IMG/VR virus record: IMGVR_UViG_2568526749_000005
DNA: 4,653 nt
Reading direction: 5' to 3' (one strand)
Origin: a virus
Taxonomy: Duplodnaviria; Heunggongvirae; Uroviricota; Caudoviricetes
Position 1 is the first letter of the stretch, and each line of letters begins with the position of its first letter. The notes under the pieces are model-generated. The model was not told the DNA's origin. It saw only the letters and a list, made by a program, of their open reading frames with translations, and searched no databases. Shown here in pieces: positions 880-4,653 of the stretch. A program made the translations under genes and the position numbers.

Positions 880-1446
880 ATGAGCAATGAGACTAATGGG
901 ATTGATGAAATGTTTAGCTTGAACGCTGCCAAAGCTGGAGTCGCAATAGGTTTGCTATTACAGCAAGCTTCTGCGTTCAGTTGTGAGGTGGTTGTTACTG
1001 ATAACGTTCAGCACGCTTACCATCAATCCTCATTCAGCAGTGAACGGGCTAATGATGAGCTTCATGAGGCGGTGTCTTCGATTAAAGAATTGTCTCGAAT
1101 GCTGAAATACGCTTATCGTGTTCTTGCAAACGCTACCGATGAGAATGTAGACAATGTGTTGTCTATCATTGAACCAGAAAAGTCTCGATTGATAGAGCAT
1201 CAATTGAGAGGACTTGAAGGGGCAATGAAATCGGTATTCAAAGAAGCTTCTGCTGATTTTAAAGAGATCGCAAGAGATATCTATATCGTTGTTGCTGATG
1301 CCAGATCTGCCGTAACCAACCTGAATAGTCTTATTAAACAACGCTCATGTGTTCCGGTTGTTTTTGATAGTTCCGTAGATATGGCTGGTTTGCGTGCGCT
1401 TGCTGAGCACGGGACTCGTGTGTTTCACTCTGGTAACTTCCACTGA
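880..1446 (+). CDS. Hypothetical protein (188 aa), predicted mostly helical; no family recognised; upstream partner of the YafO-like gene
   Basis: ATG at 880 preceded by AGGAGG (869-874) at 5-nt spacing. The stop TGA (1444-1446) overlaps the SD of the downstream gene. Confidence 0.7.
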   Translation: MSNETNGIDEMFSLNAAKAGVAIGLLLQQASAFSCEVVVTDNVQHAYHQSSFSSERANDELHEAVSSIKELSRMLKYAYRVLANATDENVDNVLSIIEPEKSRLIEHQLRGLEGAMKSVFKEASADFKEIARDIYIVVADARSAVTNLNSLIKQRSCVPVVFDSSVDMAGLRALAEHGTRVFHSGNFH

Positions 1447-1454
1447 GGTAAAAC

Positions 1455-1904
1455 ATGCAAGTAACCGTGGAATATAATCAGGATAGTTTTGACTATTTTT
1501 TCTCCCCGGTTTTTGTTGAGTTTCCTGATTTAAAACAAACACTTGTAGATGATTTTATCATCTACAAGTCTACGGGAACGTTGCCCAGCTATTTTGGCAG
1601 AGACACCTCTTATCATCGACCTCCTGATATTGAAGATGCAGGCCTTATGCACCTTCATTTAGCAATTGGTGAAAATAAATTTGAGCCAATAAAAAATGGC
1701 ACAGATATCAGCACACCGCAAAAGTTGCAGTGGCATAAAACATCCAATACCGCTCTCGTTTATGCACAAAATCTTTTTGATGAGAACAGGTATTCATTGA
1801 TTGCTCTTTTTCATCCTGTAGCTCACATGTCTGCTAACAATCATAATAGAATGAGAGTGTTAGCAGGGTATGCGAGAGACTTTAGAAACACTATGTTTGA
1901 CTAA
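1455..1904 (+). CDS. YafO-family toxin-like protein (ribosome-dependent mRNA interferase family), 149 aa
   Basis: ATG at 1455 with GAGG (1445-1448) 6 nt upstream. Resembles my recollection of E. coli YafO in several blocks (DFIxYK..G.LP..FGRD.SY, H.HLA, LVYxQ..FDE, LIA, NN..M). Followed by an intrinsic terminator. Confidence 0.6.
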   Translation: MQVTVEYNQDSFDYFFSPVFVEFPDLKQTLVDDFIIYKSTGTLPSYFGRDTSYHRPPDIEDAGLMHLHLAIGENKFEPIKNGTDISTPQKLQWHKTSNTALVYAQNLFDENRYSLIALFHPVAHMSANNHNRMRVLAGYARDFRNTMFD

Positions 1905-1952: not shown

Positions 1953-2489
1953 TCAAACAACCCACCAGTTTGCCTGATTGGATGCCAGCCTTGCAGTTTT
2001 TATGGAATTAATTATGCCATGCTCAAGAGCCTTGTTAGCATCCAAAATGGTCGAGTCTGCTATCAGGGATGCCCACCTAATATGGGTTCCGATGTCGATA
2101 TTGAACGTCTCAACGAAGCGATCAAGATCGTTATCGAGGCATTTCCCGTACTCTCTCAATCTGGCATGGTCGGCGGCTGGGGAGGCAAAGCACCATAATA
2201 GAGGATGTAACAGGAATCTTGATAATGGGTTTGCGAAACGTTCTGAGCCAGCCAGGAAAACGATATTAGCTATGGATTCAACATTGCTTATGTTGTGAGT
2301 TCTAACGGTAACAGGGAGTGACTTAAGAAAGTTATACGCAGTAAAGCCAGCAGCAGTTTCCCCTCCCTGACTTGATATATGGATATTTAATTCAGTTGCG
2401 CCTTGAGATAATGCGGTGAGACAGTGGTTCTGAAGTTGCCCAACAGTGGCAGTGTTAACAGGGCATAAGAAATGAATTGTGTGCAGCAT
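1953..2489 (-). CDS. ClpP-fold (S14-like) serine protease homolog, 178 aa
   Basis: Aligns to the ClpP core as I recall it: IHISSQGGETAAGFTAYNFL vs [20 protein letters not shown], a Ser in NVESIAN aligned to catalytic Ser in GQAASMG, LLHP vs MIHQP, and C-terminal EHGIINSI vs EYGLVDSI. Its ATG (2487-2489) overlaps the mnt stop (2489-2491) as TAATG. Confidence 0.7.
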   Translation of the reverse strand: MLHTIHFLCPVNTATVGQLQNHCLTALSQGATELNIHISSQGGETAAGFTAYNFLKSLPVTVRTHNISNVESIANIVFLAGSERFANPLSRFLLHPLLWCFASPAADHARLREYGKCLDNDLDRFVETFNIDIGTHIRWASLIADSTILDANKALEHGIINSIKTARLASNQANWWVV

Positions 2490-2737
2490 TATTTTTCATC
2501 CTTAGCATACATGGTCTTTAGCGTCTCAAGTAGCGCCTCTTTGAATTTATCAGCTTCTTGCTGAGCAAATGACTCAACTGACTTTGGCGACCTATCTTCA
2601 TCAATCGCGGCTTGCAAAATCATGACGATCTCGGAGTTAACAGAGCGACCATTTTTTGATGCTCTGACAGCAAGAGCCTCGCGTAAAGATTCAGGGATTC
2701 TTACCGTAGTTGGAGAAATTGACACACCCTTTGCCAT
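2489..2737 (-). CDS. mnt: Mnt-like ribbon-helix-helix repressor (82 aa)
   Basis: ATG at 2735-2737 with AAGGTG SD on the minus strand. Similar to P22 Mnt (RIPESLREALAVRASKNGRSVNSEIVMILQAAI vs FRMPMEVREKLKFRAEANGRSMNSELLQIVQDAL). Divergent from arc. The ORF track extends to 2779, but that N-terminal extension has no homology. Confidence 0.75.
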   Translation of the reverse strand: MAKGVSISPTTVRIPESLREALAVRASKNGRSVNSEIVMILQAAIDEDRSPKSVESFAQQEADKFKEALLETLKTMYAKDEK

Positions 2738-2851
2738 ATAACACCTTTGGTATTCAATTTGATAGCAAAGTGTATGCAAAAAAATTTTGACTAGATATAC
2801 TCACTTTGCTATCTTTTGTATTCGAAAAGAGTTGTTTGCGTGGAGGGTAAC
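2738..2851. promoter_or_regulatory. Divergent mnt / arc-ant promoter-operator region
   Basis: Perfect 12-bp inverted-repeat arms GATAGCAAAGTG (2761-2772) and CACTTTGCTATC (2802-2813), 29 bp apart. Candidate Pant: -35 TTGACT (2787-2792), 17-bp spacer, -10 TATCTT (2810-2815), overlapped by the right arm. A TTGCAT -35 candidate for Pmnt sits on the minus strand (complement of 2774-2779). Confidence 0.55.
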
Positions 2852-3004
2852 ATGGAGAAAGAAATAAGTAAGATTTTGGTAAGGATGCCGCAGTCGTTAA
2901 AGGATGCTATCGGTAGCAGGGCAAAGGAAGAGTGCAGGTCGTTTAACTCAGAGGTTATCAAGCGCCTGATAGACAGCCTGAAGAGAGAGGGGGTAACGGT
3001 GTGA
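2852..3004 (+). CDS. arc: Arc-like ribbon-helix-helix repressor (50 aa)
   Basis: ATG at 2852 with GGAGGG SD (2842-2847). Similar to P22 Arc (VRMPQSLKDAIGSRAKEECRSFNSEVIKRLIDSLKREG vs LRWPREVLDLVRKVAEENGRSVNSEIYQRVMESFKKEG). Confidence 0.75.
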   Translation: MEKEISKILVRMPQSLKDAIGSRAKEECRSFNSEVIKRLIDSLKREGVTV

Positions 3005-3174
3005 TTCGCTTGGATGCAGTAGTCAAAGAGATTGCGATTACCATTTTAAGACCAAATTTTGTTCATGGCGAATCATTTGGCACGAACGAAAAATTGAGAA
3101 GAGAAAGAGTATTCAGTGGCAAGCGCACGTTTTCAGAAGTGATGCTTGATGCGGCAAAGAAATCAAAACAGTGA
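3001..3174 (+). CDS. Possible small ORF (57 codons) translationally coupled to arc; speculative
   Basis: GTG at 3001-3003 overlaps the arc stop (GTGTGA), with GAGGGGG (2987-2993) 7 nt upstream. Open frame to TGA at 3172-3174. No homology recognised. It overlaps the predicted sar-like terminator, so it may be non-coding. Confidence 0.15.
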
Positions 3175-3236
3175 AGCCCCAACTGCTGGAACAGTCAGGG
3201 CTTCGGTTGTCGGTAAATCCGTGGAGAAAAACCAAC
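3157..3236 (-). ncRNA. sar: Predicted sar-like antisense small RNA covering the ant ribosome-binding site
   Basis: Minus strand has an extended -10 TGcTATACT (complement of 3243-3251) placing the start near 3236. A minus-strand-specific hairpin follows (complement of 3173-3204, 13-bp stem with two G-U pairs, 6-nt loop), then the U-rich tail ACUGUUUUGAUUUCUUU (complement of 3156-3172). This matches the known P22 sar arrangement (about 69 nt, antisense to the ant start). Confidence 0.35.
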
Positions 3237-4139
3237 ATGAATAGTATAGCAATTTTAGAAGCAGTGAACACCTCTTACGTGCCATTCAACGGTCAGCAAA
3301 TTATCACCGCCATGGCTGCCGGAGTTGCATATGTTGCGATGAAGCCAATCGTTGAAAACCTCGGAATGAGCTGGTCAACGCAGCAAACAAAACTCATGAA
3401 GCAGATTAGCAAATTCAACTGTGTTCATATGAACATGGTTGCCGCTGATGGTAAGCTTCGTAAGCTACTCTGCCTTCCTTTGAAGAAGTTAAATGGATGG
3501 CTGTTCAGCATCAACCCTGAGAAAGTTCGTGCTGACATCCGCGATAAACTGATTCAGTACCAGGAAGAATGCTTTACTGTGCTGCATGACTACTGGACAA
3601 AGGGAGAGGCAGCAAATGCACGGAAGAAAACATCTGTTGATGACAGGACTCCGCTTCGTGATGCTGTAAATATGCTAGTCAGCAAAAAGCATCTAATGTA
3701 CCCAGAAGCTTATGCAATGATTCATCAGCGTTTCAATGTGGAAAGTATTGAAGAGCTTGATGCATCTCAGATACCACAAGCAGTAGAGTACATCCACAGG
3801 GTAGTGCTTGAAGGTGAGTTCATCGGCAAACAAGAGAAGAAAACCAACGAGCTTTCTGCAAAAGAAGCAAACAGCCTTGTATGGCTATGGGATTATGCCA
3901 ACCGCTCACAGGCATTATTCCGCGAACTGTATCCGGCGCTAAAACAAATTCAATCGAACTATTCCGGCAGATGTCATGACTGCGGTTATGAGTTCTCCCG
4001 TATTATCGATATGGCGAGAGACGTTTTAATCAATCACACACGAGATGTTGATATCAATGAGCCAGACGGACCAACGAATCTTTCCGCATGGATGAGACTT
4101 AAGAATAAAGAATTACCTCCTTCAGTACATAATTACTGA
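3237..4139 (+). CDS. ant: Ant-like antirepressor (300 aa)
   Basis: ATG at 3237 with GGAGA SD. The N-terminus [26 protein letters not shown] matches my recollection of P22 Ant. Position after arc is as in P22 immI. The ORF-track start at 3171 is a GTG upstream extension. Confidence 0.85.
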
Positions 4140-4239: not shown

Positions 4240-4608
4240 ATGACAGACATTACAGCCAATGTGATTGTATCGATGCCTTCGCAACTCTTCACTATGGCGC
4301 GTTCTTTTAAAGCCGTAGCCAATGGCAAAATTTATATCGGTAAAATTGACACTGACCCGGTAAATCCTGAAAACCGGATTCAGGTTTATGTAGAGAACGA
4401 AGACGGCTCTCACGTTCCTGTTTCGCAACCAATCATCATTAACGCTGCTGGTTACCCTGTATATAACGGACGGATTGCCAAGTTCGTAACTGTGCAAGGC
4501 CATTCTATGGCTGTGTACGATGCGTATGGCGTACAGCAGTTCTATTTCCAGAATGTGCTGAAGTATGATCCTGATCAACTACGGCAGCAATTTGAAGTGG
4601 TTTACTGA
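4240..4608 (+). CDS. P22-type tailspike N-terminal head-binding domain only (122 aa); truncated relative to a full tailspike
   Basis: [43 protein letters not shown]...[15 protein letters not shown]...NVLKYDPDQ closely matches the P22 gp9 N-terminus. GGAG SD at 4228-4231. Similarity ends at DPDQ; the last codons FEVVY and the TGA stop (4606-4608) lie inside IR-R. Confidence 0.85.
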
Positions 4609-4653
4609 ATTTGGCCACCTGAACAGAGGTGATATGCTCACCTCAGAACAACA
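4591..4653. repeat. Right copy of the terminal inverted repeat (IR-R)
   Basis: 4591-4652 is the reverse complement of 1-62. Position 4653 (A) would pair with a T one base before the window start, so the full repeat may be 63 bp or more with 5'-TG...CA-3' ends. Same internal palindrome at 4626-4632 / 4638-4644. Confidence 0.95.

Follow-up and report, generated by a model that had tools for sequence, protein, structure and literature searches.

The secondary immunity (immI) operon of phage P22 (mnt, Pant, arc, sar, ant), with sar and its promoter Psar, is a textbook example of control by an antisense RNA combined with repressors. In P22, Arc represses the promoter Pant. The sar RNA of this phage is experimentally established, and its transcript has been detected by recent RNA sequencing (RNA-seq) (PMC13397905, PMC7968456). 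It pairs with the ant leader, blocks the ribosome-binding site and lowers synthesis of the antirepressor Ant (PMC7968456, PMC13397905); repression of Ant synthesis by a sar transcript of ~68–69 nucleotides (nt) has been demonstrated (PMC13397905, PMC7968456). The DNA analysed here, a stretch of 4,653 base pairs (bp) from the IMG/VR virus record IMGVR_UViG_2568526749_000005 (termed the window), covers the secondary immunity region of an Escherichia coli prophage of the P22-like (Lederbergvirus) type. The subject is the interval between arc and ant in the window, where sar is found together with a small open reading frame (ORF) of 57 codons.

The window has the gene order and orientation of P22 and epsilon34. 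It displays divergent mnt and arc–ant units, ribbon-helix-helix repressors of the Mnt and Arc type and a P22-type antirepressor, and it shares with P22 the Psar −10 sequence, the two stem-loops of sar and the sar terminator. It differs in carrying another Arc allele and in the spacing of arc and ant. In P22 and epsilon34, with the arc end at locus position 797 and the ant start at 866, the two genes are 68 bp apart, arc abuts sar, and no ORF is present. In the window, arc ends at 3004 and ant starts at 3237, which gives a gap of 232 bp with the 57-codon ORF in it. A first-pass annotation of the window, made by a model from the letters alone, had described this gap as longer than that of P22, and the comparison bears this out. 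The best explanation of the interval, and one that is considered probable, is that it consists of a canonical sar and an inserted 57-codon cargo ORF, the latter an allele of a hypervariable slot in the Pant operon. The sar RNA and the immI organization are known; what is new is a slot for small genes fixed between the arc stop codon and the sar terminator.

The sar RNA of the window

A search of Rfam places sar (RF00262) on the minus strand at positions 3170–3236, with a score of 83.9 bits (E-value = 2.8e-17; the gathering score of the family is 43) and a match to model positions 1–68 of 68. All seven related loci compared carry this family at the corresponding site, with 97.8 bits in P22 and 95.6 bits in epsilon34, where sar is annotated. 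The first-pass annotation had proposed a sar-like antisense RNA; with a full-length match of this kind the RNA is, judged by its sequence and predicted fold, the canonical sar of P22-type immI regions.

In the 5′ stem-loop, positions 3236–3231 pair with 3214–3209. In the terminator stem, positions 3204–3191 pair with 3186–3173, and this forms a minus-strand hairpin (3204..3173) of 14 pairs with a 4-nt loop, which is followed by the tail ACTGTTTTGA. The U-rich tail continues to approximately position 3160 and is richer here (ACUGUUUUGAUUUCUUU) than in P22 (AACUUUACGCGC). A terminator scan of positions 2400–3500 gives this hairpin as the sole terminator-like site. A 48-nt piece containing it folds in the sar sense with an unbroken 14-bp stem (−24.4 kcal/mol) and in the plus sense with an internal loop (−19.3 kcal/mol). 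In the plus sense the G·U pairs turn into mismatches and the internal loop opens. Thus the proposal of a hairpin with a U-rich tail that makes a good terminator on the minus strand only is upheld, with the correction that three G·U pairs are counted and not two. When the 77-nt minus-strand stretch is folded, the two expected stem-loops are formed (−32.4 kcal/mol, z-score = −5.3), and both stems are present in the minimum free energy and the centroid structures.

A comparison across homologous immI regions had been suggested as a check on the RNA. From related loci 32 distinct sar sequences were collected, and 18 that span the variation were aligned and their pairs counted on the Rfam structure. 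Across these 18 sequences 99.2% of the cells are paired, versus 25%–54% when the 3′ partners are slid. The 5′ stem is found in three versions (GUUGGU/ACCGAC, GUCAA/UUGAU and GUCGU/ACGAU), with two pairs altered on both sides. The terminator stem has sustained three single changes (C to U, U to C and G to A), and pairing is kept in the sar sense. The check therefore came out in favour of the structure.

Psar is predicted in the window from its conserved −10 motif and its position. The reverse complement of positions 3243–3251 is the extended −10 sequence TGCTATACT, located on the minus strand at the start of ant, as had been noted earlier. It lies inside ant codons 3–5 and 7 nt upstream of the sar 5′ end, at the position of the Psar feature annotated in epsilon34. 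The sequence TGCTATACT is present in 151 of 181 loci despite at least five versions of the Ant N-terminus, and its variants keep TGnTAnnnT.

The 5′ end of sar is at 3236, one base before the ant ATG (3237). The GGAG at 3223–3226 is inside the complement of the RNA, and the whole ant Shine-Dalgarno sequence, GGAGAA (3223–3228, plus strand), is complementary to sar positions 9–14. Of the earlier proposal that the RNA covers both the Shine-Dalgarno sequence and the start codon of ant, the first part holds, and the start codon is left just outside. The length is 67 nt by the Rfam match (3236 to 3170) and at most ~72 nt if the RNA ends in the U run, which is shorter than the 75–80 nt first suggested. 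The RNA would be transcribed from Psar, fold into the two stem-loops, mask the ant ribosome-binding site and terminate at the 14-bp hairpin. For the antisense part, the window repeats what is already known and adds nothing new on sar itself.

A small gene slot between arc and sar

Homology of the window to P22 and epsilon34 starts at approximately position 3172, at the TGAAGCCCC that opens the terminator stem, and from 3172 onward the identity to P22 is 89%. The additional 168 bp amount to exactly one ORF, at positions 3001–3174 of the plus strand (57 codons, here termed family 1; PHROG 17642). Its GTG start overlaps the arc stop codon (GTGA, 3001–3004), and a Shine-Dalgarno-like run, GAGAGGGGG (2983–2993, plus strand), is situated within arc and precedes this GTG (3001) by 7 nt; the last codons of arc hold both the Shine-Dalgarno sequence and the start codon of the downstream ORF. 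The frame is as the first-pass annotation gave it, including the start on the arc stop and the good Shine-Dalgarno sequence. A stop–start overlap together with a Shine-Dalgarno sequence inside the upstream gene is the sequence pattern of a translationally coupled pair.

At its other end, the TGA stop of the ORF overlaps the first bases of the sar terminator stem. Because the ORF ends there, sar, the ant leader and the sar terminator are unaltered by the insertion. The sar U-tract is complementary to the final, Lys-rich codons of the ORF, and it appears that this Lys-rich tail provides the tract.

The 66 nt before the ant ATG (3171–3236, plus strand) are also open in the ant frame, and a GTG at 3171 overlaps the stop of the small ORF (GTGA). 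Some gene callers report the resulting 322 amino acid (aa) ORF in the ant frame. An N-terminally extended Ant that begins at GTG 3171 was considered and rejected: among 165 loci, 82 leave this frame open and 83 have a TAA in the terminator loop that ends it, so that the frame depends on a loop polymorphism.

The translated ORF matches the PHROG 17642 profile with E-value = 1.3e-43 and 147.8 bits, residues 2–57 aligning to positions 2–57 of 57. It is annotated as a hypothetical protein in GenBank and RefSeq (QGF19908.1, WP_000620145.1). The arc–ORF–ant stretch is 99.8% identical to that of Escherichia phage phiv205-1 (MN340231) and 100% identical to that of a prophage in the E. coli type strain ATCC 11775; the 99.8%–100% identity covers arc, the ORF, sar and ant. 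In these two records sar is unannotated and the ORF is without a function. At least 80% of the stretch is found in 77 of 5,426 complete E. coli genomes, the type strain included.

Two separate scans of viral contigs were made, one with the conserved arc 3′ end and one with the sar terminator, and the sequence between the two sites was tabulated. In every slot-bearing locus that the arc 3′ end (GACAGCCTGAAGNGAGAGGGG) retrieved, this sequence stands before the ORF. Including the 57-aa family of the window, at least nine unrelated ORF families occupy the slot. Among them are families of 73 aa (PHROG 11805; found in vB_EcoP-611R6), 89 aa (PHROG 27312; found in EC.P3) and 80 aa, and five cysteine-rich families of 60, 63, 67, 71 and 74 aa with CxxC...CxxC motifs. 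Both vB_EcoP-611R6 and EC.P3 have the window-type arc and a different ORF in the same slot. The 89-aa family has a hydrophobic N-terminus and a coiled-coil-like tail. An all-against-all BLASTP comparison shows the cysteine-rich families to be distantly related to each other only, and family 1, the 73-aa family and the 89-aa family to be unrelated to all others. The 60-aa occupant matches the Pfam ClpX C4 zinc finger (PF06689) with 42.2 bits against a cutoff of 27, and it aligns to the zinc-binding domain of E. coli ClpX (PDB 1OVX, E-value = 1.7e-7). The 57-aa protein has no cysteine and no Pfam match and does not belong to this zinc finger.

The zinc-finger ORFs were observed, for example, in loci L064, L076 and L090 (60 aa), L011 and L025 (67 aa), L015 (74 aa), L012 (63 aa) and L080 (71 aa). 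In a further 11 loci (L010, L016, L023, L032, L042, L054, L062, L063, L070, L073 and L078) the 67-aa ORF has an extra T in a T-run, TTTTTT in place of TTTCT, and the frame is shifted after codon 7. The ORF may be a pseudogene of one lineage that has been sequenced often, or the extra T may be a homopolymer sequencing error that recurs. The 80-aa occupant, ending ...GRKIEVDQSVEHVSGFLLGQAGQKS, was met in the sar-terminator scan only (L124, L164).

The anatomy of the slot is uniform. Nearly all occupants start at offset −1 on the arc stop (NTGA, which is ATGA in the other families and GTGA in family 1), and nearly all end on a TGA of which the final two bases are the first of the sar stem. The U-rich tail of sar is complementary to their last codons (...AAA-CAG-TGA, AAA-AGT-TGA, AAA-CGT-TGA). 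The arc stop of P22 lies in the same conserved string (TAA-AGT-TGA). The sar-terminator scan gave at least 120 rows, which are not independent genomes. Among the matches listed, ~38 loci were already in the slot set, and a slot ORF is present in 16 of 74 evaluable new loci, which puts slot occupancy at roughly 48% of the sar-bearing loci listed. In the remaining sar-bearing loci, P22 and most Salmonella phages included, arc abuts sar. Thus, among these matches, the antirepressor operon of about half of the sar-bearing prophages also carries a swappable small gene.

The family-1 cassette occurs behind different arc alleles. Its 174 nt are the same, with 0 differences, where the arc allele departs from that of the window at 53 nt; the arc alleles with identical family-1 DNA behind them differ at 53–64 nt. 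The ORF is also essentially unchanged behind a P22-type arc. A copy with 86% aa identity is found in a Klebsiella aerogenes prophage, with another arc upstream and a KilA-N-type antirepressor downstream. In total, a near-identical family-1 cassette is situated behind at least four arc alleles, and the GTG start moves along with it in every copy found. The presence of an identical ORF behind differing arc genes puts the exchange points into the arc 3′ end on one side and the sar terminator on the other. On these sequence comparisons, the ORF is one allele of a hypervariable slot that is swapped by recombination in conserved flanks. In the literature searched, which was limited in reach, no fixed coupled small-gene slot between arc and sar was found to be described, nor were free-standing ClpX zinc-finger proteins of phages.

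Coding potential of the insert and alternative explanations

The predicted Pant promoter is at positions 2787–2815 of the plus strand (TTGACT, a 17-nt spacer and TATCTT, with TG before the −10). A consensus scan gives no other promoter-like site on the plus strand ahead of arc, the ORF and ant, and the assignment as Pant is a prediction by position, which matches the Pmnt/Pant feature annotated in epsilon34. The scan detects no promoter-like site between arc and the ORF and no plus-strand terminator after the ORF. Having no promoter of its own, the ORF would be transcribed from Pant with arc and ant. By analogy with P22, Pant would transcribe all three as one message, Arc would shut Pant off, and Mnt would keep it off in the lysogen. 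The overlap of the two frames suggests that ribosomes finishing arc most likely restart at the GTG. The ORF product would then be made together with Arc and Ant, in a brief pulse that follows infection or loss of Mnt.

Several observations point to a coding function. An open frame in this position arises in 1.3% of mononucleotide shuffles and in 6.2% of dinucleotide shuffles. Frameshifts or stops in related phages had been named beforehand as evidence that would speak against the frame; it is open and intact in all 34 viral and metagenomic copies examined. The two changes in DNA length are both in frame, one of +45 nt (L008) and one of −135 nt (L112, L135, L167). On this basis translation of the frame appears likely, and a functional product is favoured with slightly less assurance.

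The two length changes were characterized further. In L008 (positions 1542–1760) a 45-nt insertion partly duplicates the RRERVF segment and extends the product to 72 aa; the arc in front of this ORF is a hybrid, of the P22 type at its N-terminus and of the window type at its C-terminus. In L112, L135 and L167 the 135-nt deletion lies between two GATGC microhomologies and leaves an ORF of 12 codons, which still starts at the GTGA overlap with arc and still stops at the TGA of the sar stem.

A number of results weigh against a functional cargo gene. The three loci with the deletion are without 45 of the 57 codons, and the protein is thus dispensable in at least some prophages. Frameshifted protein variants are present in databases (P0004, P0006, P0008, P0009), of which some are maybe sequencing errors. 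The start is GTG in every copy, and it is ATG in all other slot families. When 1.84 billion representative proteins were searched exhaustively with a HMMER profile, nothing was obtained beyond the family itself and four tandem-repeat proteins, so that the ORF is an orphan. The AlphaFold2 model consists of three short helices with no confident fold (predicted local distance difference test score, pLDDT, 53.5; predicted template modelling score, pTM, 0.25). Among the variable sites of the ORF 11 are nonsynonymous and 5 synonymous, which gives an omega (ratio of nonsynonymous to synonymous rates) of ~0.62; this value, from an underpowered test, does not differ from the neutral expectation (P = 0.27), and it speaks marginally against strong constraint (omega 0.2; P = 0.026). 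The same method gives 0.16 for ant (P = 1e-27), 0.34 for mnt and 0.37 for the 73-aa family. It is a crude method and is underpowered for every small slot ORF (family 1 has 16 variable sites), and the diversity of the ORF among its copies is very low. The ORF is best described as a poorly constrained allele of an undescribed cargo slot.

Other searches for relatives of the 57-aa sequence were made. Pfam, NCBIfam, PADLOC and PDB sequences gave no match. A word-indexed search returned close copies only, a scan of species-representative genomes gave no distant homolog, and a metagenome scan gave eight near-identical copies. The four tandem-repeat proteins of the profile search were rejected as homologs, being long repeats that sum weak matches to a short motif. 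Two metagenome loci with 46% identity were rejected as artefacts; they were selected by the search pattern and are outside any ORF with a start.

The same observations bear on an alternative explanation, in which the insert is a translated spacer or a decaying relic. The insert would be a former gene whose peptide is irrelevant, and only translation up to the hairpin of sar and the ant leader would matter; an open frame there would avoid Rho-dependent polarity or mRNA decay before ant, or would keep termination at the hairpin. An omega indistinguishable from neutral, an orphan family with a low-confidence fold, a weak GTG start throughout, and a natural in-frame deletion which retains both the start and the stop would all be expected of such a spacer. 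The frame before sar, whether arc or a slot ORF, always stops on the stem TGA or (in P22) on a TAA 7 nt earlier, and this too is in its favour; the conserved stop position is however possibly inherited from the conserved recombination flank, and the selection test rests on few variable sites. Moreover, the spread of a near-identical cassette behind several arc alleles in two genera indicates recent transfer and not long decay, and other occupants of the slot are clearly real proteins with a conserved CxxC...CxxC, one of them above the Pfam threshold. Taken together, the spacer or relic is held to be unlikely, if still the main competitor of the cargo gene. The ORF provides a natural case in which to ask whether ant expression requires translation as far as the sar hairpin.

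A more far-reaching proposal concerns what the cargo might do. The arc–sar slot may serve small host-takeover or counter-defence proteins that are delivered in the Pant burst at infection or derepression; this is speculative and rather improbable at present. The five zinc-finger families could be mimics of the ClpX zinc-binding domain that act as decoys and block recognition of substrates or adaptors. In this way Ant or another phage protein could be stabilised, or a host response that depends on ClpXP could be disarmed. The cysteine-free 57-aa protein would be an alternative, fast-evolving effector with the same or a parallel target, and its omega, if near 1, would mean diversifying and not absent selection. 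To our knowledge, no anti-defence activity is known for ORFs of the arc–sar slot. If slot proteins act, the timing would be that of the lysis/lysogeny decision. The resemblance of several occupants to the substrate-recognition domain of the host ClpX unfoldase is a lead on phage interference with host proteolysis, and the 57-aa ORF is a widespread hypothetical protein whose expression context can now be predicted. The slot is considered to be of moderate interest, and sar and the orphan ORF of low interest.

That the insert is non-coding, acting as RNA or DNA (an extended sar target, a read-through transcript, a promoter or an operator) with the ORF open by chance, is very improbable. The frequency of chance open frames on the dinucleotide model (6.2%, above) leaves some room for it. 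A weak minus-strand promoter-like match is present at 3071..3043, but the two promoter-like sites found compare with 2.0 expected by shuffle. In P22 the RNA-seq coverage of sar runs ~35 nt past the terminator (PMC13397905). No Rfam family is found in 3005–3169, the remaining five frames of the insert hold 1–4 stops each, and the unrelated inserts, at least nine, each fill the slot as one ORF with the frame set by the arc stop, all of which argues against a non-coding element. The least probable reading is that the hairpin at 3173–3204 is a bidirectional terminator, or the end of the arc/ORF transcript with ant in need of its own promoter: the plus strand also folds here, as noted, but its hairpin has the internal loop and is followed by GGUUGUCGG without a U run, the scans call a terminator on the minus strand only and no promoter-like site between the hairpin and ant, and in P22 the same hairpin lies inside the arc–ant transcript (PMC7968456).

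Neighbouring genes and comparison with known systems

The 3′ end of an ejection-protein gene is first in order in the left part of the window, and accessory genes are next. A 188-aa hypothetical protein is encoded at 880–1446 (plus strand), 8 nt upstream of a homolog of the YafO-family type II toxins (149 aa, 1455–1904, plus strand; annotated by the Prokaryotic Genome Annotation Pipeline (PGAP) in ATCC 11775). No recognisable antitoxin was noted beside this homolog. It is followed by a strong hairpin terminator (1905–1925), which is the source of a spurious match to sroH; the match (1896–1925) was rejected, with 19.5 bits versus a gathering score of 80 and only the terminator hairpin covered.

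A ClpP-like gene of 178 aa (1953–2489, minus strand) adjoins mnt with a 1-nt stop–start overlap (TAATG). The NCBIfam model for ClpP-related head maturation proteases gives 49.3 bits, under the model cutoff, and PGAP annotates the protein as the ATP-dependent Clp protease proteolytic subunit. It would share expression with mnt in the lysogen. This gene co-occurs with the 57-aa ORF in 14 of 21 loci, versus 5 of 56 for other slot occupants. A functional link between the two was considered and rejected: most of the loci represent one haplotype, and L006 and L008, which have other arc alleles, are without the ClpP-like gene. The co-occurrence is probably haplotype linkage.

The mnt gene (2489–2740, minus strand, divergent from arc) encodes an 83-aa ribbon-helix-helix repressor (Pfam Arc 41.8 bits, FitA-like_RHH 34.4 bits) and is annotated in ATCC 11775 as an Arc family DNA-binding protein. 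The arc allele (2852–3004, plus strand, 50 aa) has a Pfam Arc match of 45.9 bits and differs from P22 Arc; it is 100% identical to the copies in phiv205-1 and ATCC 11775. The ant gene (3237–4139, plus strand) encodes a 300-aa antirepressor (P22_AR_N 153 bits, P22_AR_C 98.5 bits). A terminator after ant is followed by the head-binding part of the tailspike gene, from position 4240.

Positions 1–62 and 4591–4652 of the window form a perfect 62-nt inverted repeat. The repeat is the terminus of an IS3-family insertion sequence (IS) of the ISEc52 type, and it is found in 4,020 of 5,426 E. coli genomes. On the left the IS end cuts into the ejection-protein gene, and on the right it cuts the tailspike gene after ~117 codons. 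Since two inverted copies of the same IS end bound the segment, the immI segment appears as a 4.5-kb prophage remnant; alternatively, the boundaries may represent an assembly break at the repeats. In ATCC 11775 the tailspike gene is interrupted by ISEc12, whereas that of the window is truncated by the IS3-family element. In another genome, the 57-aa ORF is itself cut short by the same IS end as in the window (P0010, ending ...GGEVVY).

Three known systems are comparable to the slot. The operons of anti-CRISPR (acr) genes with an Aca autorepressor also carry small, unrelated, swappable ORFs in a strong early operon, which a self-encoded small repressor shuts off. The likeness is a functional analogy only, and no sequence relation was found; the repressor gene is downstream in the acr/Aca operons and upstream in the slot operon.

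The region between gene 16 and the tailspike gene of P22-like phages, described as the “ant moron”, is a highly mosaic region, for which ten types were described among sixteen genomes (Villafane et al. 2008, PMC2629481). The window adds a further case of this mosaicism. The description of the “ant moron” is one of the presence or absence of whole genes (ant, arc, sieA and others), and not of a slot within the operon.

Classical morons resemble the ORF of the window in being extra, non-essential-looking genes that are present or absent among relatives at one junction. They have their own promoter and terminator, whereas the 57-codon ORF would use Pant and the stop–start overlap with arc. With no promoter or terminator of its own found, the ORF is not an autonomous moron but a cargo gene within the operon.

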